The notes beneath the pieces were generated by a model. That model searched no databases and had not been told where the DNA came from. It saw nothing but the letters and a program-made list of their open reading frames with translations. Positions 4,110 through 34,819 of a DNA stretch of 64,000 nucleotides are shown here, in pieces. Within the stretch, counting starts at the first letter, position 1. Each line of letters opens with the position of its first letter. Where the stretch lies: sequence record PZ171033.1; one strand, given 5' to 3'. Both the position numbers and the translations under genes were made by a program. The stretch is from a phage.

Positions 4110-4113
4110 TCTG

Positions 4114-6162: not shown

Positions 6163-6176
6163 TAGCCTGTTCAAAT

Positions 6177-6209
6177 AGCCTCACTTATAATAAAGTGAGG
6201 CTATCTTTG
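6177..6209 (+). terminator. intrinsic terminator
   Basis: AGCCTCACTT-ATAATA-AAGTGAGGCT hairpin then ATCTTTG. Confidence 0.6.
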
Positions 6210-6224
6210 AAGAGGAAATAAGCT

Positions 6225-6620
6225 ATGTCTAAAGTATTCAGAAGTAATCGCAAAGCAACTGATGAAGACATCATTCGTATGAATGCTGTTGGTCTGTCCC
6301 TCGCAACTATCGCTAAGACGTTGGGGGTTCACCCCACTACGGTTACTTTGCGATTGCGTTCTCTAAACATCGAACCAGCCGATACACGTCGGACGTTCAT
6401 GGAAAACGTATTAAGACCTTTACCAACCCATGTGGCTGATTGGCTATCAGAACAAGTTGGTCCTGCTTATGAGATTCGTTCATATGTAAGAGACTTGATT
6501 CTGGAGGCATATAACAATCGCCACCTTAACCAAGAGAGTGAGCATGACAAGTTCATCCGTTTGTACGCTGGCAAATACGGAAGCCTGGTTCCGGAAAGCA
6601 GTACCAAATCCAACGAGTAA
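6225..6620 (+). CDS. putative DNA-binding protein with helix-turn-helix
   Basis: HTH-like segment GLSLATIAKTLGVHPTTV; RBS GAGGAAA. Confidence 0.5.
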   Translation: MSKVFRSNRKATDEDIIRMNAVGLSLATIAKTLGVHPTTVTLRLRSLNIEPADTRRTFMENVLRPLPTHVADWLSEQVGPAYEIRSYVRDLILEAYNNRHLNQESEHDKFIRLYAGKYGSLVPESSTKSNE

Positions 6621-18069: not shown

Positions 18070-18522
18070 ATGCAAATCATTTTGAACCAGTCCGAAGTAG
18101 AAGCTGCTGTACAGGCTTATGTTGATGATCAAATCAATCTTGCTGGTGACATTAATATTGTCATCAATGCAGATGGTACTGCCTCCGTTGGTATCAACGA
18201 AGAGGTGAGTCATGAAGATGACACTCCACCCTTGGTAGAGAAGAAAACTCGTCGTTCCCGTAAAAACCCCCAAGAAGCTAAGCATCGTCCGGTAGAACCG
18301 GAGCCAGAAGAAGTAGTTGAAGAGGCAAAGGTAGAAGAAACCCAGACCTCTACTGGTGGTCCGAACGGGAATTCTACGCCGGAACCTGAAGAAGCAGTAG
18401 CTGAACCAGAAGCACAAGAAGAAGTTGTGCAGGAAGAGGATATGAAAGAAGACCGTGAGCTTCCTCCGGAAGAACGACCGGTAACGAAGCCTTCACTGTT
18501 CGCTGGCCTTAAACGTAGTTAA
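18070..18522 (+). CDS. acidic E/P-rich hypothetical protein
   Basis: Highly acidic low-complexity C-terminal half. Confidence 0.45.
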   Translation: MQIILNQSEVEAAVQAYVDDQINLAGDINIVINADGTASVGINEEVSHEDDTPPLVEKKTRRSRKNPQEAKHRPVEPEPEEVVEEAKVEETQTSTGGPNGNSTPEPEEAVAEPEAQEEVVQEEDMKEDRELPPEERPVTKPSLFAGLKRS

Positions 18523-19225
18523 TCTGGTAGGTGGCTCAGAAGCTGCTGCTATTTGTGGTAGTGTTCGTAATTCTGATGCTATTGCTTATCAGGATTCTGG
18601 ACGTGTCGGCTCCATACATAGCATTTATCATCACTGTACTTATACTTTGGAAACTCAGTGATAAAAACGGTGGTGACAAGCCGCCAGAGTAACAACAACA
18701 ACCGAACCAGTGGACTTTAATACTCTCCGAAGTCCACAGGTTCAATCTAAACTAAGCGGAAAAGTTAGCTTTTTCTTGGGTGTAGAACCTGTTGAAGGAA
18801 ACAAAGAATTTCACATTGAATAGTTAATATCGTAAAGGGTTCTGTTAGAATCCTTTGAGATAGGAACTCCTATCATAACTATTCTTAACTTAATCTTTGC
18901 CGTATGGCACTGACGCTAGGGGTGGCCCCCCATCCGTCAGGTAGACTATTTTAAGAATGGGTTATCACAGCAAATGTAAAGCAACATTCGGGTTAATCAA
19001 TGGCCTCTCCCTATAGGGGCCATTTCTGAATCTTAGGCTATATCCCAAAGGTTAGTATCTTTGGGATAAGGCTTCAGATCTCTTATCAACTAACGCTCAT
19101 GTTGAGCATTCTACTCACACAAGCCCCTATATGGGCTGGGTTAAATGTCGGATAGCATAGCTACCTACAGCATCGAGATGTTAGGTCTTACATGTAATAT
19201 AGGGTATAAAGGGAGGACTCGTCCC

Positions 19226-19242
19226 CTCCCTCCTATTATAAT
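19226..19242 (+). promoter_or_regulatory. promoter-like motif copy 1 (CCTATTATAAT)
   Basis: C-rich tract + TATAAT directly upstream of tRNA-like element. Confidence 0.3.
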
Positions 19243-19243
19243 G

Positions 19244-19313
19244 GTCGGGGTAGCACGTAGGCATGTGCGGATGGTCGCTACTTCCCTCGCTGGTTCGAAT
19301 CCAGCCCCCGACT
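19244..19313 (+). tRNA. tRNA-like element (non-canonical anticodon arm)
   Basis: 7/7 acceptor stem GTCGGGG/CCCCGAC, D arm GCAC/GTGC, T arm GCTGG-TTCGAAT-CCAGC; anticodon arm does not pair canonically by hand. Confidence 0.35.
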
Positions 19314-19864
19314 TACTGACATCCTATCAATGAGTACATTAGGCTAACGTGCGGAGGTTTACACTGTAGCCGGTGTAGGTGGAGAAGACGGCAGGGTAGC
19401 TACCTGTGCTTAGTGTACTCTTTGATAGTTTTCGTAAGCGATTATGCGGTTTTTTAGAAACGAACCAATAACATAAATGCAAACGATGATGTTGTTCTGA
19501 TGGCGGCGTAATAGCCTGTAAGTCAGCAAGGTCTTCCGACTCCTTGTAAGCAAATTCGGCGCAGTGGCCCGCTGTGATTAATAATGGGCACACAACAGGT
19601 AAGAGCATTTAGGCTACTGAGAAATCATCCGAGGCAATCAGACCTATCTTCTGTTAAGTGCTCTTTCCGTTGTGGTGAATGCGCAGGCTGATGCGCAGTG
19701 GGACGTGGCTGACTCACGAGGATGGCTCAAGCGAATAAGCAAGCTCGACGCCGCCGAATAAGCGCCTTATGCCGGAGATCAGCACCGGCCACCACAACAA
19801 GTCCAGACGATATCTGAGTGACTATAAAAACAGATGGAGCCAGGTGGAATCCCTGGCAACTAAT

Positions 19865-19930
19865 TCCGGTGTAGGTACTAGTGTCGTGCACGGCATGAGC
19901 ATTCTGGTTCGAGTCCAGACGCCGGAACCA
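19865..19930 (+). ncRNA. short tRNA-like element with encoded CCA
   Basis: Acceptor TCCGGTG/CGCCGGA, T arm TCTGG-TTCGAGT-CCAGA, 3' ACCA; only 31 nt between acceptor and T stem. Confidence 0.3.
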
Positions 19931-19932
19931 AT

Positions 19933-20056
19933 TATCAGTTGCACGAGATGGCTTGACATGTTCAAGTTTGGACTAAGTGTGACACCGCTAGATTGGAGGG
20001 CTGCTGCGGTAAGCTATAGACTCCAACCGGAGGTTCGAATCCTTCACTGATAACCA
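19933..20056 (+). ncRNA. 124-nt tRNA-like RNA with encoded CCA
   Basis: T arm GGAGG-TTCGAAT-CCTTC, 3' ACTGATA-A-CCA; only complementary 5' strand TATCAGT is 122 nt upstream. Confidence 0.25.
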
Positions 20057-20414
20057 ATTCAAAGTAGCATTGCACTAACCCATCCCGGAGTTCAAAGGCC
20101 AAACATGGAGCAGTGCTACTCTGAATTAGAAGAATTATGGTGGGTCTGGTGAAGTAGATAGGGTTCGATTCCCTCCGGTAGAGTAATCTACTAGCGTGCT
20201 TGGTGCACGAATAAGACTTAATACTGGTGGTTCAATTCCATCCCCCACTGCCTATTTGAGGTGTAACAGTTAAATCCAGTTGCCGGAAGTGCTATTCTAG
20301 ATACGCTGCCAATGTGTGAACGGTAAGGCTGTACAGGACTCGGACTCCCACCTCAAACCAAAGTCGCCAGATACTTATGGCAAACGGGTAGTAACGAACT
20401 AGTCATTCGTCAAA

Positions 20415-20432
20415 CGCCCACCCTATTATGAG
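20415..20432 (+). promoter_or_regulatory. promoter-like motif copy 2 (CACCCTATTATG)
   Basis: Near-identical to copy 3. Confidence 0.3.
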
Positions 20433-20610
20433 TCAGCAAGAACGCCTTCATTTAAACTTAAACAAAAAAGCTTAACGCAATAATTATGTAGGGGTATGTA
20501 AGGATTGCGAAGAAGGAGCCAGTTAAAGTCTGGCATGACTCACCTAATTGAGGCTGTACTTATGTTCTACAGTAGGTGCACAACACTGGGCTGCTACACC
20601 CAGAGGTACA

Positions 20611-20628
20611 GCCTCACCCTATTATGGG
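20611..20628 (+). promoter_or_regulatory. promoter-like motif copy 3 (CACCCTATTATG)
   Basis: Near-identical to copy 2. Confidence 0.3.
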
Positions 20629-20693
20629 TAGCCTATACTAGTTATAGGGCAGATAATCTGTGGCAGTGTAAGGCTGCACTACCCTTTCATTAA

Positions 20694-20769
20694 TACCCGG
20701 TAGGCTTAGTGGTAAAGCCCCACTAGTAAACCAACTAGGACGCAGGTTCGAATCCTGTCCGGGTAGCCA
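20694..20769 (+). tRNA. tRNA-like gene with encoded CCA (6-nt anticodon loop)
   Basis: Acceptor TACCCGG/CCGGGTA, D arm GGCT/AGCC, T arm GCAGG-TTCGAAT-CCTGT, discriminator G + CCA; anticodon stem CTAGT/ACTAG with 6-nt loop. Confidence 0.4.
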
Positions 20770-20774
20770 TTTAT

Positions 20775-20859
20775 GCCCACTTAGCTCAGTGGTAGAGCGC
20801 AGGAAAGCTTCGAGAGAACAAGGTGTCTGTGGTCACTGGTTCAAATCCAGTAGTGGGTA
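20775..20859 (+). tRNA. tRNA-like gene, 85 nt, no pairable anticodon arm
   Basis: Acceptor GCCCACT/AGTGGGT, canonical D arm TAGCTCAGTGGTAGAGC, T arm ACTGG-TTCAAAT-CCAGT; 36 nt between D and T arms with no 5-bp/7-nt stem-loop. Confidence 0.4.
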
Positions 20860-21174
20860 CTTATTTGCTGCAATATTCCCATAGGGAATGGTGTCGTATA
20901 CGCCACCTAGTTTCTGGTGAAACTCCAGATGCAGCAATCCATTCAGCAGTAACATAGTCCTGATTGCATTGCACTCTAAAGACAACACTGGTAAGACAGT
21001 CCAGTGGCTGCTATTGTATTGTTATTCCCCTCGACGGGAATTTCGCTAGTGAAGGTAACACTTAAAAATCCAAACCCACGTCTTACTGCTATCGGGCTAT
21101 CAACCCACAGTCGCTTAACACACTAGTGGTAGTAGTTTGACGACCTAGCCTCGTTAGCTGCGTTAAAGCTACTA

Positions 21175-21210
21175 AGTCCCCTAGAGGGGCGGCTCTAGGG
21201 GACTTTTTTA
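21175..21210 (+). terminator. strong intrinsic terminator
   Basis: 12-bp stem AGTCCCCTAGAG/CTCTAGGGGACT then T6. Confidence 0.7.
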
Positions 21211-21238
21211 TTTGAGTATTAATAGCCGGATAATCAAT

Positions 21239-21397
21239 ATGATTGACCTAATCTCAACCCCGTATGCCTATGAGGTAACGGACAACCGAGGGCATAAGTA
21301 CTTGGTATTTGCAGGTAGCGTAGCCTATAACAACGCAGTCATGTTTAAGTACAAACTCAAACCACTCTATGAGGCTAATAATGGCAACAGTAAGTAA
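21239..21397 (+). CDS. hypothetical protein
   Basis: Short ORF, start taken at ATG 21239. Confidence 0.4.
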   Translation: MIDLISTPYAYEVTDNRGHKYLVFAGSVAYNNAVMFKYKLKPLYEANNGNSK

Positions 21398-21761
21398 AGA
21401 AGCAATCGAAGCTAAGATTAAGAGCGTCTACTATTTCAATGGAGCGGATGCAGTGAAGTCTGCATTCGTTGACCCATCTGCACTACCGGCAGATGATTTG
21501 GCTAACCTGGGTCTGGTAACCTATTGTGTAATCATTCTGGAAAACAACTTTAAAGTTGAAGGTGTATCTGCTTGCGTAGACCCAACTATCTATGATGAAC
21601 AGAAGGGTCGTCAATATGCATATGAAAATGCATTCAATAAGATTTGGGAATTAGAGGGTTACCTACTACGTCAGGCACTGCACGAGAAAGAAGAGACTGC
21701 TAAAGCTCTGGCTTCCTTTGCAGAAAACAATACCTGTGATGGTGGTGGTTGTACAATCTGA
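21381..21761 (+). CDS. hypothetical protein
   Basis: ATG 21381 with GAGG upstream. Confidence 0.5.
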   Translation: MATVSKEAIEAKIKSVYYFNGADAVKSAFVDPSALPADDLANLGLVTYCVIILENNFKVEGVSACVDPTIYDEQKGRQYAYENAFNKIWELEGYLLRQALHEKEETAKALASFAENNTCDGGGCTI

Positions 21762-22407: not shown

Positions 22408-25400
22408 TTAGTTTATCAGGTTCATCCAAGGGTTCAGGTTGTGAGCACGTAAGCCTTGACCGAAACCGAAGGAGTAACCAAGATTGCCCTGTGCAGCAAT
22501 ACTAAAGATGTTGTCCTGAATAGGCAGGCCAACGTTACCAAACATGGTAGGGGTTGGGGCCAACATAGCCATAGCAGCATGAACTGGGTTATTACGAATC
22601 ATGGACACTGCAACTTTTGCAGAACGAATCTTAAAGTTGTAGAACCACATCAGACCAACACTTTCCATATACCCACGGAAACGACCTGGCAGACGATCAT
22701 AGTTAATAAACTCTTCCGTTACACGTCCTAGTGCTTCTTCGCGAGTCTTACCTTTACGCTGAGTTAATTCATCATAGATGATTGCTTTAGCAATAAAGTC
22801 AGAGTACTCAACCGTCTTCTGGATACCCTGGAACAAAGCAGTATCCTTAGTGATAAGTGCATAACGACCAGCATTACGTACAGACTTAGGCAGCTTATCA
22901 GCCAACTTATCCATGTACTCGTGAAGTTTACCTTCAGTAATCAGGATGTCGTCACGACCAATACCAGCGTCTGCAATTGAAGAGAACTCACCTGCTTCTA
23001 ACAGGGGCCAGATACTCAAACGCTTATGACTATCAGAGATGGACTGAATCTCAGCCTTAAGTTTACGAATCTGGTTCGGGTTAGTAGCTGCACGTAATTC
23101 TGCTTCTGCATCTACCTGACGCAGACGAGATTTCAGATACTGGTTAATCTCAGCAGTTTTCTGTGGAATGCTCTTAGCAATGTTCTTAACAGGTACACCA
23201 CGAGCAACCATCTGGTAAAGGTTAGCCAGGAAGTTAACAGCAGGTACGACTACTGACTTAACTACAATCAGGGTCTTAGCTTCTTTAACTAAATTCTGAA
23301 CCAGGTTCTCACCACCCATTACGTATTTATAGGCACGGTTACCGAAGACACCCAACATAGCTTTCTTGAAGGTATCCAGTGTTTCTTGGGACCAACGAGA
23401 GTTACCAGACCAGGCATCACCAACAGAAGCTGCACGATAGCCGAGAGCATCATTGAGCATGTCACGACGTACCCACAGCTCACCAGGACCAAACAGACTT
23501 TCTGCTTTCTGACGTGTTTCACTATTCATCAGCTTAAGTGCATCGGCAGTTACTGGGTCCAGTTTAGAACCAAGAAGGTTAACGTACTGGGACTTATTAG
23601 AAGCAGACATCTTAATGTCGTTCTCATACATGCTATGCAGGTTCTCAATTAGCATATCGTTGAAACGCTGAGCCTTAGCCTCTTCTACCTGACGACCACG
23701 CCATACACCGATTGCACGAGCAAGATGGTTCTCACCCTCAATGTGCTTCAGCATGTTAGGGTCAATGGATTGCTCATAAGCAACCACATTACCATTGGCA
23801 TCATATACAGGCAGAAGTGGTTCATTACCACGTTCACCACGAGCCAGTGCTTTAGTGATACGATCTACAGAAGGCTTGTCAGTAATACGACCAGCTACCA
23901 TGGTTCCCATAGTAAAGCCTGTACCAAGGTCCACACCACCAGCAGTATTGCGAACGTTCTGTAAGATACCCTGTGAGAATGGGGCCTGTGCCTGTACTGG
24001 TGCGAAGTAGTAGCTACGAGCAGGACCACGATTAGCAGAGCTACCCTGATATGTACCCAGTCGTACATAGGATTTCTCAATCAAATCAGCAAACTGACTA
24101 TCTTCAGCAACAATCAGATTAACACCCTGTTTAGTCTCACTAGGGATATGCCCTTTGTACTGGTTCAGGGTTGCACGCATATCAGATTTGGCTTTAGCCA
24201 TTTCATCTTTACGCTGACCAACCAGGTAAGAGGTGGCAAAGTCCATCCCATCAACTTCTGTCTGAGCCAGTGAAGATAACATCTCACGGTCGGACTTGTT
24301 CATTGCTTCCAGTGCATACAGGGTAATCAGTTTATCCAGTTGAGCTACATCTACAGTAGAGCGTGCAGCCTGACGTTCACCCAGCATACGGGAGATTGCA
24401 GTAGCATTACGCAGCAGGTTTTTACCGACAGTACCATTAATCATGTACTGAGCCAGTTGCTTAGATTTACGGTTAATCAGAGGCCAGTTACGACCAGCTT
24501 GTTTCTGCAAATCTGCTTCCAGCTTATTCACTTCACGGTCAACAATCTTCTGGTCAGTCAGTAAGTCACGGATTTCAGCCAGTGACATAGTGTCACGCAG
24601 GACAGCTAAATCTGTTTTACCCATACCAGTATGCATTACTTTCCACTCATCATTAGTCAGCTTACGGCTGAACTTAGATGCGATAGTAGTAGGCAGATGT
24701 TCACGGAACTGCTGACGGTCTGCCTGCACCTGTGCACGTACTGCTTTAATCAAATCGTATACAGAAGCATTGCTCTTAGTACGACCGGTTAAGTCATTAA
24801 CCAGGTCATGGAAAGGTTGCCATACCTTACCCTGGTTCATTGCAGCCATAACACCTTCAGCTACGATTGCACCATTCTTCTCTGTAGCAATAGCAGCTAC
24901 CAGTTGTGCAGCATGAGCAGCACCTTTAACCAATGGATTATTGGTATTGGCTGCAACTTCACGAGCACCTTCCAAAGCACGGGTAGATAGTACATCAATA
25001 GAATCCACCAGATACTGGTTAGCACGGTCAATAGCATTACCAGTAGGAGTAGCAACGGAATCATAGAAGGATTCTGCATTAAGACTGGTCTGCATAATCG
25101 TCTGAGCCAGTGCATCCATACCTTCCTGTACGTTAGTAGCTTTAGTATCACCTGCTACACGAGCATTCAGACTAGCCATTGCAGCAGTACCAATGTTAGT
25201 CAGCATTGCATCAACGGTATTACCTGATTTCTTATCTGCTTTCATGACAGGAATGTCAGCCAGTACTTTACGTACTTCTTCACTTACCATTGCCAGACCA
25301 ACAAAGGTAGGCAGTAAAGAAGATCGACCTTGTGCATCAAACTCAATGTTGTTAGCACCCATGATGGTATCGAACTTCTGCTGTGCATAATAACGATCAG

Positions 25401-28400
25401 CAGGGTTAGTACTATCTGGGTCAGCCATAAATGCTTCGACGGTCAGATTCTTAGTAACATGCGTGTAGTATTCCTGTGCACGAGCCATAGCAGCAGGGTT
25501 AACAGCAGCCTCGGTAGCCAGTGCAGCAACAATATTGGTAAAGAGACGCTGTTCCTGCATATTCATGGTGAAGCCATGAGCCTGAACATCACGAGTTACT
25601 TTAGTTGCATTTACTACTGCATCAGAGAACTTACCTTTGCGAATTACTTGCTGTACTGGTTCTGAACCAATGTAGTTAGTAATTAGCTTATCAAAGGTTT
25701 TCCCTAGCTCTTCCAGACGAGTATTTTCACCATACGCTTTGTTATGGAACAGAGTAGTATCTTTGGCTACAGCAGCAGTAGGAGCTTGCCCACGCATTAC
25801 TACAGCAGAGTTAAACAGTAAGCCAGAGAACATATCTTCTGCATTAGCAGGAGCTTTCTTACGTCCAAATACCAGACGTTTGATTGCTTCATATACAGCC
25901 TGAACCATAGTTTTAAGTGCAGTGGTTTTCTTCTGCTTACTAATCAGTTCTCGGTTGGTTAAACCCCAAGCCATGTACTCGTTCAGTGCAGCAGCTTTAG
26001 CCATTGCTGGTTCAATAAAGCCATTGGATAGGTGACCATTAATGGTATTCAGTGCATCAGCATATGCTTCTCGTACTGCCGGAGATTCATCCCTAACATC
26101 CAGAGCACGGAACTGATTCATCAGGTCTTCGATGTTCTGGACTGCTTCATTAGGAGTGCCTTCATAGTGAGCCAGTACAGATTCAAAAGTAGAAGCATGT
26201 ACCAATTCATGAACCAGAGTCTCTAAGGAAGGGGTAACTAAGTAGATGGTTTTATCTTCAAAGTTAGTCCAGCCGTATGCATTACCAGCTTCAGCAGCTT
26301 CAATATCTTCCGGTGCTGGGCGAGTAATGTTCTTCTCAATAGCATAGGCATCCAATTGAGCAGGTGTACCGTAAACAACTTTATAGTCTTTAGCAGCAAG
26401 GGATTTCTGTATTTCTTTCAATACTTCTTGCTGTTCAGGAGACATCTCTTTAGCCAGTTTAGTAATGGCAGTGTTAGACAGCAGACGTACACCAGACTTC
26501 AGTACACGACCAACCTGTTCCATCGCCGGTACTTCTTCCACTGGTTCTGCTTTAGTAGCACGTACTGCTTCACGACGCTTATTTAATTCAGCATCAAACA
26601 GTTCGTTCAGCTTAGCTACTTGCTGGTCTACAGTAAGACCTTCCAGAGAGATTTTACCGTTGTTCACATAAGGAGCACCTACGGCAGCCATCTGGTCAAC
26701 AGTGACTTGTACCTGGTCCATTACCTTGTGACGAATATCTACACCCAGAGCAATGTTACGCAGGTTACGTTCAATCTGCTCAGCACCGACACGTAACAGG
26801 TCATCAGTAGCACCCTCACGTTGGTCATACTCCAGAGCAGACTTAGCGATAGCCTGTTTGGTTTCATCAGACAGTTTACTGAAGTCTACGTTCTTCATGA
26901 ACTTAGCGTAGGAGTCATAAACATTCTTGATAGGGTTACCCTGCCAGGAAGTATATACAGCCTCATTAGCTTTGCGACTTGCATCAGTGATGTCATTGAT
27001 ACCAATGTTCATACCATCAAAGATTTTCAGGGTATTCTTCGGAGCACCTTTCATAGTAGAAAGTGTCTGCATCATCATGCCATCACCAGTACCGATGGTC
27101 ATAAATGGAATACCTGCAACACCTGCCTGTGAAGGAGCATAAATGCTCATTGGCACACGCATACGGTCATCTAAGTTAGTAGCCAGTACTTGGTTAGCAA
27201 CATCAGTATTCTCACTACCAGCAATGTAGAAAGTCTGTGAACCAGTCTCAATCATTGGAGCCAGTGAAGATAATGATTCCTGGATTTCATTCAGTTCTTT
27301 CTGCGTTAAGAAATCACCTTTCTTCCAGGTTGGGTCTTTTTCTTTTTCTGCCAGCTTAGCCTGTACTGCTTGCTGGAACATATCCTGCAATACCAGAGAT
27401 TGAATCTGGGTAGCCTTCTGCAAGTTCTCGGTAGAGTGCATCAGACCTTCACCAACAGTATTACGGATACCAGTACGCATTGGTTCAACGAACAGGTGGA
27501 GCATGTTCTCTTGTAAGTTCTTCAGGGCATTACCGGATACGGTAAATTTCTGGGGGTCTAACTTACCAGTCAGAGCACCATCTACTTGCTGAATAGACAA
27601 CTCACCTTTACGCATAACTGGAACATTACCAGTCAGTGCTTCCATAGAAGTAAGGAAAGTATCCAACATAGCCTGAGCATCAGCTTCAGACGCAGCCTCC
27701 TTACCAAACATTGCCATAGCTGGGGAAATGCTAGGGTCAGCAGCTCGTGCTTGCAGAACGTCACTGAAGCGTTCGTAGATGGTATCAGTAATTGCACTGA
27801 CCATCTTGCCAGCAATACCACGAGCACCAGAACCATAGATGGTAATGGTCAGTGGGTTTTTAGCAATACCACGTTTCAGGTCCAGAGTACCGTCTTCATT
27901 CAGGTTAAAGTCTTTAATGAACAAGTCCATTAACTTCTGGAGATGATTCATCTGGCTCATAACTGGAACGTTGTTACGGTAAGTAGTACGTAACTCATTC
28001 AGTGCTTGTTGAAGACCATTGGTAGATGCTTCATACAAGTCAACATTATCGTCGATAGAACAATGTTCGTTCATCGTTTTACCAGCACGACCAAAGAACA
28101 AACCACCTTTGGCAGTGTTCTTAATCCAGTCTGGAGTGAACTTACCACCAGTCATTAATACCATTGCGTTGATTGGGCCGTTGGTTACACCATCAGCTTC
28201 AACGTACAGTGGAGTAGTAAAATTAGCACGGTCATCACTGTTCAGGTAACGGGCATATTCCATCAGAGCCATGAGAGCTACGAAGGATTTATCACTACCC
28301 AGAGAGGTCTTCAGGATGTCTACTGCATCTGTCGGTAAGTGACCAGACTTATCAAACTCAACCATCATATCAACAGCAGGTTTCAGTTTACCTTCCAGAG

Positions 28401-31400
28401 CTTTAGTTAACTCTTCAGACATAACTTCACGGGACATTTTATGTACCTTGATGCCTAATGCCTGAGCCAGACCTAACTGGAAGTCAGAGAACGCTTGGCT
28501 GTTTTCATTACTCAAGTCGATAGTAGAGAAGGTTGGTAGGATTGCTTCACGAACCAGCTTACTGGATTGTGGGTTGTTCTTACCAAGCATCTGCATACGA
28601 CCTACACGGGTCATGTTATAACCGTAGTGGATAGGTGTATCCAGACCATTCTCTTGTTCTCGTATCTGATTAATTACACCGAACAGAGAATCATATGCCA
28701 TAGACACGGACAGGTTTTTACCTTCCAAAGATTTAGCAGTGTTCGCGTTCAGTAATTCTGGATTAAGAGTACCAGCACCCATCAGTTCCAGAATGTTGTC
28801 ACGCCCCAATGCTTCATAGAAGTTAACCATTGGCATATGTACACGGAACTCGGTAGCCTGTTCAGCTTTCAGTGCAGCCTTCTGTTCAGGGGTATTCTTA
28901 ACAGCAGGGTTACGCAACTGAGTCTGAGCCACAGAAGGAATGTCATCACCAAAGTACATTTTCTCTTCTGGTTCTAAGAGGACAGCTTCCTCAATAGCAG
29001 TAGGGAATTTATTAATGGCATCATTGTCATCCAACTTCTCAATGGTATACAGACCAACAGTCTTATTGGAGTCTGGGTCAATCTCAGACACATCCAACAT
29101 AGACTCTTTAACTTCACCCATCTCAATGAGAGAAGACAGAATCTCTGTAGCCATTGCCATTGGGATACCTTTGGTATAACCCAGCGGTGCATTAGGATTA
29201 CGATTCAAACCCCAGTAGGATTCAATCTTCTGAGCCAGTGAGTTAGTAGCTTCAACCAGGGTCTGGGCATTCTCGAACTCAGCCAGAATACCTTCTGGTA
29301 ACAGAGATGCTTCTACGCCTGTAATAGCAGCTACGTCTTTCATATCTTTAATGGCAGCATTCTGTGTAGTAGTCAGTCGCCATTGCAAACCAGCAAGCAC
29401 AGCAGTCTCTAACAACTGGTCGTTGAACTTAAAGGTATCCCCATCTTGTTCAACTATATTCAGCAGTTTGCCACCTACCCAACGGTTAGCTTCAGTACCT
29501 TCTGCAAAACGTTTACCAACGTTCTTATTAGCAAGGAACTTAGCCAGACGTTCAGACAAAGTAGTCTTCAGAGTTTCACCAAAGTCCATTAAGTCCTGAT
29601 AACGCTTAATCACATCACTAGTGAGAGCGTTATTTTCTTTTTGAGTGAATGCCTCAAAGCGAGCAGCAGAAGACAGTGCTTGCTTAATATCAGTCAAAGG
29701 AGATTCTGAACCAATGGTACGGGACTTAGGTTCTTCCGGTAAGGTAAATGCTTTCAGGAACTGGTTCGGTGTCTTTTCATTGTTATAGACAGGGAACACT
29801 GTTTCCATTTCTGTTTTGGTTTCAGCTACTTCCTGGATGGTATCCTCATTCTTGAGAATAGCATCTACTGTTTCAGGCTTAGTAGTAGAGACTTCTTCTG
29901 TTTTTGGACTAGTCTCCTTAGTAGGAGCAGTCTTATTTTCTACCACAGGTTTAGCTTTAGGCTGTACAGTAGTAGTGTCCTCTTGCACTGGTGCAGGAGA
30001 TTCATCAACCTGATTCACTGGTTCATTAGTCTGTTGAGACTGAGTGGCATCAAGACCACCTTGACGGAACTCTTTAACTACCTGGGCAGCAGGCTTGTTC
30101 AGACGTGAATCCAACGAGGTAACTTTCACATGAGAAACATTAAGCTCCGGGTAAGCCGTAGCAAGTGCATTAGCAATATCAGCTACGGTTTTGGCTTCCA
30201 GTCCTACTTGCTGGGCAAACTTAACAGACTTGGTATCGTAAGGATTGACACCGAGGCCAGTACGACTACGTACCCATTCACGGGAAGGCGAGAGAGCCTG
30301 ATAATGAACAGACTTATTCTTATCCGCATTCCCCGAAATCAGATGCTCATTCAACGCTCCGACCTTATTCTGCATGTGCTGGGCGAACTTCATAAAGTCG
30401 CTCAGATAAGCGGAGGCCAAATCGAAGTTACCAGAGTTATACGCAGAACGAATGCGTTTCGCATGTTGCAACGCAGAGTACTGTCCTTCATTAGAACGAG
30501 ACTCGTCGGTTTTAATCTGTTTACTAACAATGTCTTGAGGACGTAAGCCTAGTTCTTCTGCTTTAGCGTCGAACTCACGTGCACCCTGTAACAAGGCAGC
30601 AGCAGATTGCAGGGCAGCACGTTGACGATTCCCCAGTGTAATCTTACCTTCACTTGCGTGCTTCAGAACCATGTTCACTGAATCTGCATCCAGTACTTCT
30701 GGAGACACATCAGCAGCCATAGCAATGTTGTTTGCTTGGGCTTGATTAGCTTCTTCAGTAGCTTTCAGCTTACCTGCTTCAGCCTGTTCCTGAATCATGG
30801 AATGGATGGCACGGAATGCACGGAGTACTTTAGGGGTATTCTGTACGTTAGCCATCAAGCCAGAGAACTGGTCTACGATTGTAGCAGCAGGAGAACCTTG
30901 TTCCAGATTAGCCAGAGCACCTGGGTCACGGTTAATGAAGCTATCCATAGACATGATGTTGTCATACATCTGGATTGCAGCTTCCATTTGAACGTTAGGG
31001 TCTTCAGCAGTATTAACCAGGTCAGCCATCTTCTGAATAGCTTCAACACGGTTAGTGGAACCAGAAACAGCTTCACGGATTGCCGGGTTAGCTTGTTCCA
31101 ATTCTACCGGGTCAAACTTCATTGCCTGAGTTAAGTCAGCAGCATACTGGGTAGCAGCAGCTTTCTCTTCTGGAGTGATGTCCATTGCATCCACTGCTTC
31201 TTGTACAGTTGCCTGTGCTTGTTCTGCCTGAGCAGCAGCTTCCTGTGCAGCAGCATTAACCGTAGCATCAGCTACAGGGGATGCTTGTTCATTACGCTTA
31301 GCAACTTCTTCACCACGTTGAATCAGGATGTTAGTAAGAGGGGATGCAGCTTTTGCTAATGTTTTGCCAACCAGAGAAGCACCAGCCAGGGTAGTACGAA

Positions 31401-32760: not shown

Positions 32761-32823
32761 AGCATGTTTCCTGTTCAAACTTATATCGTATATAGGTAAC
32801 TTACTCTACAGTAAGCCAGTTAA

Positions 32824-32854: not shown

Positions 32855-34819
32855 TTACCGATTTTGTCTTGGTTGCATATACTCAGGCAGTCCTTGTGCC
32901 TGACGTAAGTACCGTGCAGCACGTTCTTCATCTTCCTTGGCTCGTGCCCTGTCCACACTAGCCTGTGACTGAAAACCTCTTGGAGCCAGGTTAGCTGGGT
33001 CAGCTTGTACTTGTGCCTGTGCAGCTTGGAGCATTGCAGCAGCTTTAGTAACAGCCTCCTGTCGTGCAGGTAACAGTGCAGTAAGACCACTTTGTCCGGT
33101 GTTAATCTTATTCTGGGTATTTGCCAGTGCAGCTACAGCAGCATCATATGCAGTCTGTGCTGCCTGAATGTTCTGCATAGCCTGAGCACGACCTAGGTTA
33201 CGAACACTACCTTCTAATGGTTCACCTCGTTTTACACCCTCAATTAACTGTTCTACCTGACGGTCATTAAGACGCATACCATTACCGGCTTCATTGGTAA
33301 TGAATGGGTTAACTGCATCAATAGCACGACTAATATAACCTTCCGGTACACCAGTCTGTGCACGTTGCATAACAGCAGCAGCCATAGCTGGTGACATATT
33401 CCCACGTTGGGAAATATCATTCAGTCGGTTCAGTACCCAGTTACGGTCAGCACCTTTAAAGTCACCCTCCAACAGACGGTTAGCAATCTCACCTACTGGG
33501 GTATTATCGGTGACAGTACCAAGGAAGTCAGTGTTAAGACTACCGGTGTTATCCTGCATAGAACGAGTACCAATCATACCAGTAGCCAGAGTAGATACTG
33601 CCTGATTACCTTGGTTATTCTGAACCATAGCTAGTGGGTCAGCCCCCACTTCTGCTTGAGCAATAACAGGTTTAATCTGTTCCCAAGTCATATCCTTATA
33701 AGCACCTGGAGCAGAGTTAGGGAGTGCAGCCCAAGTATCTTTAAGGTTACCGTTCTTACGGGCCTCGAAGATAGCCTTACCAATCTTATCCTGGTTCTCA
33801 GGAGAAAGAGGCTGGCTTTGCCAATCTGAACCAAGAACTTTAGGAGCGAAGTCTTTCAGAGTAGCTTGGTTAATCTGGAATGCACCAACAGGTGAAGCAC
33901 CTTGGTTCTTCTTCATACCATCCTGGTGTTTAATTACATCACCAATACTCATTTGAGTAATAGGAGTAGATGTACTGGCAAACTGGTAAGTAACATCATA
34001 AGGAGAACCCTGACGAGTACCAGCAGTACCTGGAGCAGATGTAGCACCAACATTATTACCGTAAACACCCGGGTATGCTCGTGCAAGCATTTCCTGCAAA
34101 CGTGCCTGTGCAACCGGGGACAGGTTCTTACTATATGCTTCTGCCAACAGACGGGCATCATTAGGGTTCTCAGCACCACGAGTAATCTGTGACATTACAC
34201 CCATAGCTGCCTGACTATCAGCATCATTACGTTGGGCAACACCTAAATCAAAACGGTTCTGTGCCTGATTAATAGCCTGACCACCCTGACCTTGAAGACG
34301 ACCCAACATGTCCAATTGTTGGTCAGCAGGGAGTGCAGACAGTGCATCACGGGTCTGACTTAATGCAGCATTAATACGGTTCTGGTCGCCGGACTGATAA
34401 GCCTCAGACAGCAAACGAATAGCTGGGGAAGCATTATCTAATGCAGTGTTAGTATCCTGTAAACGACCAAAGCGATATGCATTGTAGTCATTGGTTCCCT
34501 GCTGACCTTGTTGGGTCAGTAATGTACCTGCTCGCTCATCCAGATTCTGGAGAGTACGTTGGTTTACCAATGAGGGGTCAACCCCCTGAAACAGTGCACC
34601 GGATGCTAAAGCATTACGGTACTCATTCGGGTCTTGATACTGCATAGCATTCATCATGACGGCATTGCCAGCCTCCTGCTTGGCAGCGTTCTGGAAATTA
34701 CCCAGTGCATCACTTAAGCCGGAGGTGGCGTTACCAATCATGCTGCCAAATGTGCGAATGCTGTCACCAACTCCAGAGAAGTTAGGTGCATCAACATTTC
34801 TCCACGTTATCTGAGCCAT
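32855..34819 (-). CDS. virion protein, likely co-injected with vRNAP
   Basis: 654 aa, Q/A-rich; first gene upstream of vRNAP in late operon. Confidence 0.55.
   Translation of the reverse strand: MAQITWRNVDAPNFSGVGDSIRTFGSMIGNATSGLSDALGNFQNAAKQEAGNAVMMNAMQYQDPNEYRNALASGALFQGVDPSLVNQRTLQNLDERAGTLLTQQGQQGTNDYNAYRFGRLQDTNTALDNASPAIRLLSEAYQSGDQNRINAALSQTRDALSALPADQQLDMLGRLQGQGGQAINQAQNRFDLGVAQRNDADSQAAMGVMSQITRGAENPNDARLLAEAYSKNLSPVAQARLQEMLARAYPGVYGNNVGATSAPGTAGTRQGSPYDVTYQFASTSTPITQMSIGDVIKHQDGMKKNQGASPVGAFQINQATLKDFAPKVLGSDWQSQPLSPENQDKIGKAIFEARKNGNLKDTWAALPNSAPGAYKDMTWEQIKPVIAQAEVGADPLAMVQNNQGNQAVSTLATGMIGTRSMQDNTGSLNTDFLGTVTDNTPVGEIANRLLEGDFKGADRNWVLNRLNDISQRGNMSPAMAAAVMQRAQTGVPEGYISRAIDAVNPFITNEAGNGMRLNDRQVEQLIEGVKRGEPLEGSVRNLGRAQAMQNIQAAQTAYDAAVAALANTQNKINTGQSGLTALLPARQEAVTKAAAMLQAAQAQVQADPANLAPRGFQSQASVDRARAKEDEERAARYLRQAQGLPEYMQPRQNR

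Follow-up and report, generated by a model that had tools for sequence, protein, structure and literature searches.

Acceptor/T-arm modules are attached to non-tRNA RNAs in MALAT1/mascRNA, in the bacterial Y RNA YrlA and in engineered tRNA scaffolds. Such tRNA-like modules are recognised by RNase P or RNase Z together with the CCA-adding enzyme, define RNA ends and stabilise the cargo. In EHEC, the prophage-encoded anti-sRNAs AgvB and AsxR pair with host RNAs. Phage tRNAs with changed anticodon loops have been documented to evade tRNA-cleaving nucleases (PMC10264068, PMC11464382, PMC11555353, PMC12445682), and the function of the T4 stable RNAs species 1 and 2 (RNAC, RNAD) is still unknown (PMC9697503).

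We analysed a 64,000-nt window, the whole of a stretch of phage DNA from record PZ171033.1. Positions 18693-21205 form an RNA-gene island at the end of a rightward gene cluster in this N4-like (Gamaleyavirus) coliphage, with a counterpart in both N4 and KP8. The island carries seven tRNA-shaped modules (E1-E6 and TLS-X), all of which lack a standard anticodon arm. Modules of the tRNA-like and long-hairpin kinds flank a tmRNA-derived RNA, the most widespread component of the island. The features of the block are as follows.

18531-18692, + strand: coding 53-aa ORF with two hydrophobic helices, outside the RNA island
18693-19242, + strand: conserved non-coding island leader, final motif CCTCCTATTAT
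19244-19315, + strand: E1, near-canonical tRNA-like acceptor/T-arm element with CGC at the anticodon position, pair C3-G70 and no encoded CCA
19324-19428, + strand: hairpin X, long and irregular, with a conserved U.U mismatch
19426-19467, + strand: conserved 5' segment of the tmRNA-derived RNA, complementary to E. coli ssrA nt 57-106
19473-19514, + strand: resume context AUAAAU, start-less tag ORF and stops UAA UAG, with sub-threshold Rfam tmRNA matches
19527-19589, + strand: two H-type pseudoknots 3' of the tag, PK2 (19527-19559) and PK3 (19560-19589)
19591-19674, + strand: hairpin Y (GGUAAGAGCA...UGCUCUUUCC), of the same type as hairpin X, closing the 3' side of the core
19671-19796, + strand: TLS-X, cryptic tRNA-like module, architecture from the MFE structure
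19797-19930, + strand: leader (19797-19864) and acceptor/T-arm element E2 (19865-19930), conserved in N4, KP8 and Gamaleyaviruses
19933-20056, + strand: E3, 124-nt tRNA-shaped RNA with a 7-bp acceptor stem, T arm and encoded CCA
20138-20251, + strand: E4, five-helix tRNA-shaped acceptor/T-arm RNA with two T-loop hairpins and two other hairpins, ending in CCU, not CCA
20262-20350, + strand: 89-nt element near-identical to an N4 stretch
20415-20640, + strand: two more copies of the CCCACCCTATTATG-type motif (20421, 20617), AUGUAGGGGUAUGUA module and long hairpin 20550-20616
20694-20769, + strand: E5, tRNA-like acceptor/T-arm element with D and T arms and encoded CCA
20775-20860, + strand: E6, tRNA frame with acceptor and T arm, the anticodon arm swapped for a 30-nt element, CAGGAAAGCUUCGAGAGAACAAGGUGUCUG
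21174-21205, + strand: intrinsic terminator closing the island, a 13-bp G+C-rich stem followed by TTTTTATTT

The original prediction had described a 2.7-kb non-coding block, which holds for most of its length and fails at 18531-18692, where the conserved ORF encodes a predicted membrane protein of 53 aa. The peptide shows conservative substitutions across eight Gamaleyavirus/KP8 loci and N4, and the ORF is an annotated CDS in KP8 and nithesis and unannotated in N4. The island leader, within which no ORF is conserved, is 83-94% identical in ~56 Gamaleyavirus records; its part at 19059-19237 is common to Kuravirus-type phages, with 78% identity in 75-78 kb phages (Bas87/88, IME267, EK010). Further downstream, the 89-nt element is 98.9% identical to N4 33231-33319, in the N4 gp47-gp48 non-coding gap, and 84% identical in 150-kb Enterobacter/Pantoea phages. 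Positions 20428-20546 are 97% conserved in Gamaleyaviruses, the AUGUAGGGGUAUGUA module is found too in Bas80 and N4, hairpin 20550-20616 has a z of -2.05, and the terminator has an equivalent in N4 and KP8. The block is a mosaic of modules that also occur in unrelated phages.

A scan with the T-arm pattern G[GT]TC[AGT]ANT[CT] located seven stem-flanked motifs on the + strand (19293, 19907, 20033, 20163, 20230, 20746 and 20839); the eighth match, at 19960, lacks a T stem. The same scan found no such cluster at other places in the 64 kb. The five elements proposed earlier were too few, as six can be delimited in addition to the cryptic module at 19671-19796. The three encoded CCA ends (E2, E3 and E5) and the two tandem pairs were borne out, with spacings of 2 nt for E2/E3 and 5 nt for E5/E6. 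The claim that a canonical anticodon arm is missing also stood, since by the ARAGORN and Rfam outcomes none of the elements has the standard 5-bp/7-nt arm. ARAGORN matched only E1, as tRNA-Ala (cgc), and E5, as tRNA-??? whose 'anticodon' is 2 nt long, and the Rfam tRNA model scored above threshold only for E5 (39.3 bits) and E6 (53.9 bits), leaving three elements accepted by either program.

Comparison with relatives revealed compensatory changes in N4, KP8, pSb-1 and a T4-like phage, which show that the elements are real structured RNAs rather than decay products. In most of the seven modules the acceptor and T helices and the internal hairpins are preserved by compensatory substitutions. For E2, E3, E4 and E6, compared among N4-like phages of E. 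coli, Shigella and Klebsiella and, for E4, also with a T4-like phage, acceptor stems, T stems and internal hairpins all stay paired in this way; these elements are therefore evolving as structured RNAs whose cores are not cloverleaves. E2 is a 66-nt RNA without a D arm, in which a 4-bp stem covaries (UGUC/GGCA to CGUU/AACG) and a 6-nt loop changes from GUGCAC to GUGCACA; KP8 annotates it as 'tRNA-OTHER'. E3 has an 80-nt core with two hairpins. Its acceptor pair 3-70 is U-A or C-G, three more pairs are compensated in KP8, and both a hairpin (CUUGA/UCAAG to CCUGG/UCAGG) and the T stem (GGAGG/CCUUC to GGGGG/CCCUC) change. Across nine homologues of E4, 99.1% of cells are paired and 14 of 25 pairs show changes on both sides, with covariation in every helix and no shuffle as good (0/500); the T4-like phage VR5 has a homologue with tRNA-Met on one side and tRNA-Arg on the other. 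E6 is a tRNA-Ile(AAU) frame with exchanged D and anticodon arms. Rfam places a 24-nt insertion at its expected anticodon-loop position, relatives carry a 74-nt tRNA-Ile(AAU) with identical acceptor and T arms, the insertion form is common to pSb-1 and Bas96, and the 30-nt element is also present in the HK620 TLS-X module.

The two remaining elements lie closer to tRNAs. E1 comes nearest to a canonical anticodon arm, with a 7-nt loop and 4/5 stem pairs (5/5 in the St11Ph5 copy); its sole Rfam match is tRNA-Sec (28.3 bits, under the gathering score of 47), its MFE is -30.1 kcal/mol (z -2.2), and it is missing in IME11 and PhAPEC5. The anticodon arm of E5 can be drawn with a 6-nt loop on 5 bp or an 8-nt loop on 4 bp (UAAACCAA). 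In five Gamaleyaviruses its central region is invariant and an acceptor change is compensated (CCGG/CCGG to CCAG/CUGG); its MFE z is -2.3. The original prediction, which offered unusual tRNAs, pseudo-tRNAs or a different class of tRNA-shaped RNA, is supported in part: unusual tRNAs comes closer for E1 and E5, a different class describes E2, E3, E4 and E6, whose helices are kept, and simple decay found no support. Its observations were likewise confirmed in part. It overlooked the tmRNA-like RNA at 19425-19610, and with it the context that best explains the block, an RNA-gene island, found also in N4, with a widespread tmRNA-derived RNA.

This RNA belongs to an unannotated, undescribed family that is spread over many unrelated enterobacterial phages and prophages. 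A wider query containing the core (19315-19935) matched 553 phage records, and the core lies unannotated between Q and holin in 145/5426 E. coli genomes. Judged by its sequence, the RNA looks like the message part of bacterial tmRNA minus the tRNA part: it has a resume context, two pseudoknots that covary and a tag ORF of 10 codons on which selection acts at the codon level. The tag ORF reads GCA AAC GAU GAU GUU GUU CUG AUG GCG GCG (ANDDVVLMAA), and the sub-threshold Rfam matches are to tmRNA_permuted (31.2 bits, E 7e-4) and beta_tmRNA (E 0.005). Across the family, 24 nucleotide versions of the tag keep a constant length of 10 codons plus stop; variability at codon positions 1/2/3 is 10/8/21, the final codon is GCN in four synonymous forms, and U(-5)A(-4) of the resume context is kept. 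The pseudoknots, of which PK3 has the conserved loop GAUUAAUAA, are paired in 88.7% of cells across 25 family members, with both-side changes in 15/21 pairs, against 30-49% in slid controls and no shuffle as good (0/500); a second independent count was made. An alanine-accepting tRNA-like domain is absent from the RNA, and ARAGORN reported zero tmRNAs in the family loci while recovering true tmRNAs in control contigs.

Long hairpins flank the core. Hairpin X (MFE -43.3 kcal/mol, z -3.66, shuffles as stable 0/200) has a covarying stem, CUAUCAAUGAGUACA/UGUACUCUUUGAUAG in the window, CCAUCGGGGAGUACA/UGUACUCCCCGAUGG in PhAPEC5 and GGUAAGAGCA/UGUUCUUUCC in HK620, and its apical insert holds a copy of the E2 5' half (CCGGUGUAGGU, 19370-19380). 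Hairpin Y (MFE -27.8 kcal/mol, z -3.09) is conserved across family members, with a variable apical insert. In every case a tRNA or tRNA-like element lies 3' of the core. FelixO1-type phages have an ordinary tRNA-Arg(UCU) there, L098 has tRNA-Gly, L010 has a tRNA-like element whose loop is 11 nt long, and the window, HK620 and Bas80 have TLS-X. TLS-X combines a terminal stem of 7 bp (UGUGGUG/CACCACA) with two hairpins, one D-like and one T-like (GCCGG-9 nt-CCGGC), and a variable middle between them. It recurs with differing middles in HK620, Bas80, L003, L017, L019 and L030, and in HK620 the stem is followed by G+CCA. Because it varies little, its covariation support is weak, with one compensatory change in the D-like stem (GCGCA/UGCGC to GCGUA/UACGU).

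The conserved 5' segment of the tmRNA-derived RNA is complementary to host tmRNA. RNAduplex pairs it with ssrA nt 57-106, which span pseudoknot 1, the box upstream of the resume codon, the resume codon and tag codons 1-6, through 36 bp at -41.5 kcal/mol, and six subfamilies reach -41 to -44 kcal/mol at ssrA 54-107. Mononucleotide shuffles of the segment gave -22.6 +/- 2.7 (as low in 0/200), and GC-matched natural windows (n = 1818) had a minimum of -34.1, with 0 below -35. The GC-corrected z is ~ -5, and in a positional scan of 19300-19940 no other region stood out in this way. Shuffling the 5' segment reduces the cofold gain from -15.5 to -3.2, and nhmmer returned a reverse-strand match. Block 1 (GUUUUCGU) stays constant, in contrast to codons 4-7 of the RNA itself, which vary. 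In FelixO1-type and Bas80-type phages, predicted sigma-70 promoters put the motif at the 5' end of the RNA. Several G+C-rich windows give similar duplex energies when composition is not matched, and the plain local-alignment score for the segment is not unique within the window. Pairing is weaker in FelixO1-type, L010 and L047 members (-23 to -27 kcal/mol, no significant difference from shuffles), and L113 lacks the motif. By reading of the sequences, the segment is also somewhat similar, in the sense direction, to tmRNA nt 14-40, and ancestry may therefore account for part of the resemblance.

We propose, with a probability of roughly 0.45, that the island releases stable RNAs and that the tmRNA-derived RNA anneals to host tmRNA, masking and possibly replacing its tag template. 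The island would be transcribed as long precursors and cut by host RNase P and RNase Z at the tRNA-shaped modules and by RNase III in hairpins X and Y. Cleavage would free stable small RNAs, and the tRNA frames would both signal processing and, as scaffolds, protect the non-tRNA cargo. Once free, the tmRNA-derived RNA would use its 5' end to anneal to the message region of host tmRNA, which is single-stranded, and would invade pseudoknot 1, masking the host tag template. In the most speculative step, the phage template may be read in place of the host's, since it has its own resume context and a selected tag ORF ~23 nt from the duplex end; host tmRNA would contribute the charged tRNA-like domain and SmpB. 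Against such a swap, we know of no precedent for a branched host-phage hybrid in the ribosomal mRNA channel.

The identical complementarity evidence would fit a pure antisense inhibitor or sponge of host tmRNA, perhaps acting through RNase III cleavage of the 36-bp duplex, with the tag ORF and pseudoknots as inherited, untranslated mimicry aiding stability or co-localisation. Such an RNA has precedent in AgvB and AsxR and requires no unprecedented ribosomal event, but the invariant tag length, the excess of third-position and synonymous variation and the kept resume context are hard to explain without translation, and we regard it as somewhat unlikely. Intact permuted tmRNAs with the same AUAAAUGCAAACGA context do occur in phage tRNA islands (L110, for example), which, with the mosaic block and the sense similarity to nt 14-40, could suggest that a phage-borne tmRNA, whether one-piece or permuted, lost its tRNA-like domain and survives as a degenerate remnant spread by recombination among phage tRNA clusters, its ssrA complementarity being coincidental or a by-product of ancestry. 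This is very improbable given that four pseudoknot stems keep compensatory pairing across 25 diverged members, that a fixed-length, synonymously varying tag would be unexpected and that the RNA's own predicted promoter is kept in several phage groups; ancestry also predicts complementarity only to tmRNA's own helix partners, not to single-stranded tag codons. Less probable still is a complete, unconventional tmRNA in which a linked module (TLS-X, E2 or a flanking tRNA) is aminoacylated and provides the acceptor domain, whether it is fused to the 3' side of the message part or held by base pairing as a separate piece. A module does invariably follow the core, the HK620 TLS-X ends in G-CCA, and E2 encodes CCA and has its 5' half copied within hairpin X; yet G3.U70 occurs in none of the elements, the FelixO1-type neighbour is an ordinary tRNA, and complementarity able to join two pieces was not found. 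The modules are moreover closed folds of tRNA-like type, which would make the message part a 5' leader for RNase P to remove.

The tRNA-shaped elements could alternatively be decoys or nuclease-resistant tRNA variants whose altered anticodon arms absorb or escape host tRNA-cleaving defence nucleases, with PrrC, PARIS AriB, retron effectors, OLD and Schlafen-type enzymes as candidates, and be unrelated to RNA processing or to the tmRNA-like RNA. The precedent of nuclease-evading phage tRNAs, the full cloverleaf frames with odd loops in E1, E5 and the relatives' tRNA-Ile(AAU), and the encoded CCA of E2, E3 and E5 are consistent with this. We nevertheless consider it unlikely: an anticodon-like loop is wholly absent from E2, E3, E4 and E6, which, unable to decode, would be decoys at best; the conserved internal hairpins exceed the needs of a nuclease decoy; the 30-nt insert of E6 recurs in a non-tRNA context in HK620; and no defence system is implicated. 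Already disfavoured, and barely credible, is the view that the elements are pseudo-tRNAs in decay and scars of recombination that have no function themselves. E6 is chimeric on its face, E1 varies in presence among close relatives and hairpin X holds the E2 half-copy, but covariation marks every E4 helix and the stems of E2 and E3, E2 and its leader are kept from N4 to KP8, and E5 is unchanged in five phages despite differing flanks.

Read as tRNA-shaped processing modules around a tmRNA-derived RNA, the island can be set against known systems. With tmRNA (SsrA, including two-piece permuted and phage-borne forms) the phage RNA shares the resume context (AUAAAU-GCA; U at -5, A at -4), a short ORF that lacks a start codon (AN[DE]...[AV]A) and is followed by stops in or beside a small hairpin, downstream H-type pseudoknots and partial matches to Rfam tmRNA models; the AUAAAUGCAAACGA word is shared with genuine permuted tmRNAs in viral contigs. 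It differs in having no G3.U70 acceptor stem, no D-loop analogue with T arm and no CCA end joined to the message part, in lacking pseudoknot 1, and in Rfam scores under gathering thresholds. Its 5' end is also antisense to host tmRNA, to our knowledge a feature of no tmRNA. The T4 RNAs RNAC and RNAD likewise lie in a phage tRNA cluster and have, at ~120-140 nt, a T arm and an acceptor-type 3' end as in the island elements. In T4-like VR5 the E4 homologue sits in the tRNA region adjoining rnaD-like sequence; T4 rnaC and E4 have only a short motif in common (CUUAAUA, then the T arm), so homology to T4 itself is not established, and no T4 counterpart of E2, E3 or E6 was detectable. As in MALAT1/mascRNA, YrlA and tRNA scaffolds, the acceptor/T-arm module is attached to non-tRNA RNA, and would here be processed similarly; unlike YrlA, there is no Ro-binding helix, and the Rfam YrlA match scores 18.7 bits against a gathering score of 69. 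Defence-evading phage tRNAs are also tRNA frames in virulent phages with changes concentrated in the anticodon arm (PMC10264068, PMC11464382, PMC11555353). Those tRNAs are functional and decoding, with 7-nt loops, whereas here E2 has a truncated arm and E5 a loop of 6 or 8 nt, and in E3, E4 and E6 other structure, 30-80 nt long, takes the place of the arm. Like anti-sRNAs of the AgvB/AsxR type, the tmRNA-derived RNA is a phage RNA from downstream of a late promoter, proposed to pair with an abundant host non-coding RNA. Its proposed target is tmRNA rather than an Hfq-dependent sRNA, the 36-bp duplex is far longer, and the RNA also carries a tag template and pseudoknots.

The region at 18500-21250 matches Gamaleyavirus N4-like coliphages (24-32N, nithesis, St11Ph5, Bp4, ECBP1, IME11 and pSb-1) at 84-94% identity over 60-82% of its length, and is thus conserved but mosaic. 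The last rightward protein genes (ORF 18070-18522) lie to its left and ORFs at 21212 and 21369 to its right, followed by the virion RNA polymerase gene (22408-32778) on the opposite strand. The original prediction described 18540-21210 as non-coding, which holds from about 18693 onwards. Because 18531-18692 codes for a conserved 53-aa protein, a hydrophobic two-helix membrane-protein ORF with a GTG start that is kept in Gamaleyaviruses, KP8 and N4, the non-coding part begins only there. The N4 record and several Gamaleyavirus records leave this ORF unannotated, and others start it at an internal ATG. The first gene after the island, the ORF at ~21369-21761 (130 aa), is annotated as 'anti-CRISPR protein' (Gp52) in the record of 24-32N and as 'N4 Gp49/Sf6 gene 66 family' in that of KP8. 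In nithesis and Bas96, automated annotation places 10-13 short 'hypothetical protein' CDSs (30-70 aa) on both strands of the island; these overlap covarying RNA structures and are likely spurious.

Equivalent islands occur in other phages. In phage N4, the equivalent site between gp47 and gp48 is a gene-free gap of 1.5 kb (383-1901 of the N4 comparison sequence), for which the reference record annotates no RNA genes. ARAGORN finds tRNA-Asn, -Ser, -Thr and -Pro in this gap, which also holds a homologue of element E2 (described below) with its leader, other modules common to the window, and a long hairpin around a T-arm-like motif. Klebsiella phage KP8 carries an equivalent island as well, covered in its paper only by a list of six tRNA genes, two of them unassigned. 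An 89-nt element at 20262-20350 is 98.9% identical to N4 (1501-1589) despite differing flanks, and recurs at 84% identity in 150-kb Enterobacter/Pantoea phages. Another exchanged non-coding module, 19059-19237, is ~78% identical to 75-78 kb Kuravirus-type coliphages (Bas87/88, IME267, EK010). The motif C(C/A)CC(C)TATTAT(A/G) is found only within the island, in three copies (19226-19241, 20415-20430 and 20611-20627), each right after a hairpin, with variants in KP8 (CCACCTTATTATG, CACCTATTATGGG) and N4. It could be a phage RNA polymerase promoter, a processing site or an RNA 3′ end. We rejected CCCTATTAT as a general promoter, as it is confined to the island and is a poor sigma-70 site.

A T-loop pattern scan of all 64 kb returned seven stem-flanked T-arm motifs, all on the + strand between 19293 and 20839, and an eighth match at 19960 that has no T stem; no comparable cluster lies elsewhere in the 64 kb. 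Six elements that combine an acceptor stem with a T arm could be delimited, one more than originally counted.

Acceptor/T-arm elements of the island
E1, 19244-19315, + strand, acceptor/T-arm element
E2, 19865-19930, + strand, acceptor/T-arm element with encoded CCA, in tandem with E3
E3, 19933-20056, + strand, acceptor/T-arm element with encoded CCA, in tandem with E2
E4, 20138-20251, + strand, acceptor/T-arm element
E5, 20694-20769, + strand, acceptor/T-arm element with encoded CCA, in tandem with E6
E6, 20775-20860, + strand, acceptor/T-arm element, in tandem with E5

The three encoded CCA ends (E2, E3, E5) and two tandem pairs (E2/E3, E5/E6) agree with the original prediction, as do its good acceptor stems and textbook T arms: terminal stems in E1-E6 are 6-7 bp long, with compensatory changes in E3, E4 and E5, and the seven T-arm motifs combine a 5-bp stem, which covaries, with a 7-nt GTTCRANYC-type loop. 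A canonical anticodon arm (5-bp stem, 7-nt loop, U33, purine 37) had been reported missing and is indeed absent from all six elements, with E1 nearly canonical (four of five stem pairs in the window, five of five in St11Ph5, and U at position 37). E2 has a 4-bp arm with a 6-nt loop at the anticodon position, E3 and E4 have no anticodon-type arm, the E5 loop is 6 or 8 nt, and the E6 arm is swapped for a 30-nt element. Database tools recognise only some of these RNAs. ARAGORN calls E1 (tRNA-Ala cgc) and E5 ('tRNA-???', with a 2-nt anticodon), and the Rfam tRNA model RF00005 (gathering 29 bits) is passed only by E5 (39.3) and by E6 (53.9), the latter with a 24-nt insertion in the anticodon-loop position. 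E1 matches only tRNA-Sec in Rfam, at 28.3 bits against a threshold of 47, and E2-E4 give no Rfam match even at E <= 10. Given these calls, the central observation stands: good acceptor and T arms, with the canonical anticodon arm absent.

Folding of single elements gave modest z-scores (-0.3 to -2.3); the case for the elements as real structured RNAs rests on covariation. Alignment with relatives revealed compensatory changes in E2, E3 and E4. In E3, acceptor pair 3-70 is U-A or C-G among relatives and KP8 alters three further acceptor pairs on both sides, and two further helices change, the inner hairpin from CUUGA/UCAAG to CCUGG/UCAGG and the T stem from GGAGG/CCUUC to GGGGG/CCCUC. E2 and its 68-nt leader are kept from N4 to KP8; in relatives its short central stem changes from UGUC/GGCA to CGUU/AACG and the loop from 6 to 7 nt. 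For E4, we counted a five-helix structure over nine homologues, two of them from Klebsiella N4-like phages and one from the T4-like phage VR5. Paired cells amount to 99.1%, both sides have changed in 14 of 25 pairs and every helix covaries; none of 500 shuffles is as good, and slid controls reach 42-61%. The E4 fold contains two T-loop hairpins and two more hairpins, one with a UUGG loop.

E6 is a chimera. Related phages carry a 74-nt tRNA-Ile(AAU) with the same acceptor and T arms as E6; in the window, pSb-1 and Bas96, the D arm differs and the 30-nt element CAGGAAAGCUUCGAGAGAACAAGGUGUCUG is present instead. The 30-nt sequence, CAGGARAGCUUCGRRAGAACAAGGUGYCUG, both replaces the anticodon arm of E6 (20797-20826) and forms the middle of a cryptic tRNA-like module, TLS-X, in HK620-type prophages (2812-2841 of the HK620 sequence). 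It looks like a portable RNA module.

When Rfam was searched permissively, the stretch between E1 and E2 matched two models below threshold, permuted tmRNA at 31.2 bits (E 7e-4) and beta-proteobacterial tmRNA (E 0.005). The centre of both matches is CAUAAAU GCA AAC GAU GAU GUU GUU CUG AUG GCG GCG UAA UAG, which encodes the tag ANDDVVLMAA. All tmRNA models score below gathering (RF04321, 31.2 versus 47; RF01850, 18.5 versus 84; RF00023, 15.9 versus 47 (L004)). BLAST with 19315-19935 matches 553 phage records, among them N4-like, FelixO1-like, Vi1-like (Ackermannviridae), P22-like (HK620) and several siphovirus groups as well as Erwinia phages. The core common to family members is 19424-19610. 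Of 5426 complete E. coli genomes, 145 carry it and none annotates it; in HK620 and E. coli prophages it is flanked on one side by the late promoter/qut site and on the other by the terminator that precedes the holin gene. In one member, a Vi1-like Klebsiella phage (L003), the region 3928-4141, ~1.3 kb downstream of the tmRNA-like RNA, matches the STnc100 sRNA of Rfam at 48.7 bits (gathering 47).

Scanning viral contigs for AUAAAUGCAAACGA, followed by filtering, yielded 47 distinct members. In every one the tag ORF consists of 10 sense codons and a stop, in 24 nucleotide versions that encode 18 peptides fitting AN[DE]x x x[LRK][AMV][AV]A. Third codon positions are the most variable (extra states: 10 at position 1, 8 at position 2 and 21 at position 3). 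The final sense codon is GCG, GCU, GCC or GCA, and stops in the other frames are variable. The resume codon is GCA, and the 8 codons back to an in-frame UAG include no AUG, GUG or UUG. The alternative frame MQTMMLF was rejected as a real small protein, since its length varies across the family. Downstream of the tag are two H-type pseudoknots, for which 88.7% of cells are paired among 25 diverged members and 15 of 21 pairs have changed on both sides. None of 500 shuffles is as good, slid controls reach 30-49%, and a second independent count was made. The upstream pseudoknot 1 of tmRNA is absent, as GCGG has no internal partner.

A canonical or permuted tmRNA was rejected because ARAGORN, run on the window and on more than 15 family loci, found none and searches at Rfam gathering thresholds were empty, while ARAGORN recovered true tmRNAs, mostly permuted, from 10 of 12 control contigs with the same sequence word. 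One of these, the IMG/VR contig L110, holds an intact permuted two-piece tmRNA gene (6036-6433, tag ANDSEYLVAA) in an island of 24 phage tRNAs, and many other viral contigs contain permuted tmRNAs. The L110 gene carries GGGGCUG...CAGCUCCACCA, which is absent from the window; the local tRNA-like elements are all C3-G70 or U3-A70, without G3.U70. A one-piece 563-nt tmRNA, with the CCGGUGUAGGU copy at 19370 as 5′ acceptor half and the 3′ half of E2, was also rejected: the copy lies inside the closed, covarying hairpin X (described below), position 1-72 would be G.A, G3.U70 is absent and the insert is missing from most relatives. Nor do the apical inserts of this hairpin in HK620 and KP8 hide a tRNA-like domain, as a T arm is absent. 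The family is thus tmRNA-derived yet fails the defining test of tmRNA, since a tRNA-like domain was not found.

The surroundings of the core fall into a few arrangements. In FelixO1-type phages, a predicted near-consensus sigma-70 promoter (TTGACA-17-TATAGT) ends 7 nt before AGUUUUCG, and the core runs directly into tRNA-Arg(UCU); Bas80-type phages also have their own predicted promoter. Inside longer transcripts (the HK620 late leader and the N4-like island), the core is bracketed by GGUAAGAGCA...UGCUCUUUCC hairpins with a U.U mismatch. These long irregular hairpins, X (19324-19428) and Y (19591-19674) in the window, have z-scores of -3.7 and -3.1, and their stems covary. In every case a tRNA or tRNA-like element lies 3′ of the core.

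Elements 3′ of the core
FelixO1-type phages: tRNA-Arg
L098: tRNA-Gly
L010: tRNA-like element with an 11-nt loop
Window, HK620, Bas80, L003, L017, L019 and L030: cryptic TLS-X module (19671-19796 in the window)

TLS-X comprises a terminal stem of 7 bp and hairpins of D-like and T-like type with a variable middle between them; the 9-nt loop of the T-like hairpin places it outside the tRNA T-arm definition. The HK620 form has G-CCA after the stem and the 30-nt element of E6 as its middle. RNase P, RNase Z and RNase III may process the transcripts at the tRNA-shaped modules and at hairpins X and Y, and the tRNA frames could be scaffolds that carry other RNA modules.

An HMM of the family core matches E. 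coli ssrA twice: in sense orientation at the tag region, and as the reverse complement of nt 65-99. The second match runs through the conserved 5′ segment of the family. For window 19426-19467 and ssrA 57-106, RNAduplex predicts 36 bp (2 G.U) at -41.5 kcal/mol, with GUUUUCGU/ACGAAAAC and GCGAUUA/UAGUCGC among the pairing strands.

Predicted pairing blocks between the 5′ segment and host ssrA
Block 1: UAGUUUUCGU with ssrA nt 97-106, host tag codons Asp-Glu-Asn-Tyr, 10 bp perfect
Block 2: GCGAUUA with ssrA nt 85-91, upstream box and resume codon
Block 3: UGCGGUUUUUUA with ssrA nt 68-79, 3′ strand of pseudoknot 1

The same ssrA site is predicted at -38 to -44 kcal/mol for the HK620, Bas80, Vi1-like, L016, L019, KP8 and SP-058 types. 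Pairing at this site is weaker for FelixO1-type phages, L010 and L047 (-23 to -27 kcal/mol, 24-26 bp, with a 12-bp first block); in these and in L113, blocks 2 and 3 are weaker or different, and L113 is without the motif. GUUUUCG is found in nearly all members, at the RNA 5′ end in two groups as judged by predicted promoters, and the antisense motif is unchanged in Erwinia phages. If composition is not matched, G+C-rich windows give similar duplex energies, and a simple alignment score does not single the segment out; local alignment alone and unmatched duplex scans were therefore dropped as tests. Significance was assessed with mononucleotide shuffles and composition-matched natural windows.

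Controls for the predicted duplex (energies in kcal/mol)
Segment shuffled by mononucleotide: -22.6 +/- 2.7; observed energy reached in 0 of 200
ssrA target shuffled (100 versions): minimum -29.4
Pairing with the downstream region of the RNA itself: -16 to -28
Natural 44-mers of matching GC drawn from the window (n = 1818): mean -22.3, minimum -34.1
GC-corrected scan of 19300-19940: z ~ -5 for the 5′ segment only; background minimum -4.5 (2600 windows)
ssrA and core cofolded in full: duplex retained; gain -15.5, against -3.2 after shuffling the segment

By these controls, the predicted complementarity of the 5′ segment to ssrA exceeds chance. Targeting of a constant host sequence is favoured by the near invariance of block 1 family-wide, set against the RNA's own codons 4-7, which take many forms, none matching the host's. 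Intramolecular pairing of the segment with its own tag region was rejected as far weaker (-16 to -28 kcal/mol).

These comparisons establish a family of structured RNAs with a tag ORF under selection, no tRNA-like domain and complementarity to host tmRNA. We propose, at a probability of roughly one in four, that a widespread phage and prophage RNA family hijacks ribosome rescue. The RNA would be freed by host RNases or made from its own promoter; its single-stranded 5′ end would pair with the open message region of tmRNA and invade pseudoknot 1, sequestering the host resume codon. The base that pairs with U68 is 23 nt away from the phage resume codon, and U68 itself is 22 nt from that of the host, a spacing at which the ribosome might, speculatively, resume on the phage template. 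In such a hybrid 'two-piece' tmRNA, the host would give the alanine-charged tRNA-like domain and SmpB and the phage the tag template, so that rescued proteins would get a phage-specified tag (ANDDVVLMAA, ANEEMYLAVA and others). The nearby tRNA-shaped RNAs would be natural scaffolds that deliver and stabilise cargo RNAs.

The main rival is pure antisense inhibition of host tmRNA. It accounts for the pairing but leaves the codon-level selection on the tag ORF unexplained.

Trans-translation is the main bacterial ribosome-rescue pathway and a proposed antibiotic target. Pairing with host tmRNA, if it occurs, would make the RNA the first known phage factor that targets this pathway and the first tmRNA relative working without its own tRNA-like domain. 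The family is common, including in therapy phages and EHEC O26 prophages, and is without annotation in all records examined; annotation pipelines tag such loci as 'tRNA-OTHER', with a wrong tRNA identity or as spurious small 'hypothetical proteins'. Our literature search turned up neither a phage tmRNA-like RNA lacking a tRNA domain, nor pairing of a phage RNA with tmRNA, nor an account of the Gamaleyavirus/N4 (G7C/N4) RNA island.

Among known systems, the tRNA-shaped RNAs recall T4 RNAC and RNAD, whose function is still unknown (PMC9697503). E4 is 77% identical to a homologue in the tRNA region of T4-like VR5 and has only a short motif beside the T arm in common with rnaC. The homologue (VR5 1480-1590) is without annotation, lies between tRNA-Met and tRNA-Arg in Dhakavirus phages and is followed by rnaD-like sequence; tRNA regions of T4-like phages thus hold more stable-RNA genes than annotated. 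With the tRNA-shaped RNAs, a puzzle that the T4 'species 1 and 2' RNAs have posed for 50 years extends to other phage families, and covariation-supported structures become available for testing. Phage tRNAs with altered anticodon loops are also among the closest known systems (PMC10264068, PMC11464382, PMC11555353), together with tmRNA (permuted and phage-borne forms included), tRNA-like processing modules and prophage anti-sRNAs. The core family resembles tmRNA in its resume codon, start-less tag ORF and downstream pseudoknots, and differs from it in lacking the tRNA-like domain and pseudoknot 1. We rate the finding as an extension of two known kinds, a tmRNA-derived RNA and tRNA-like stable RNAs.
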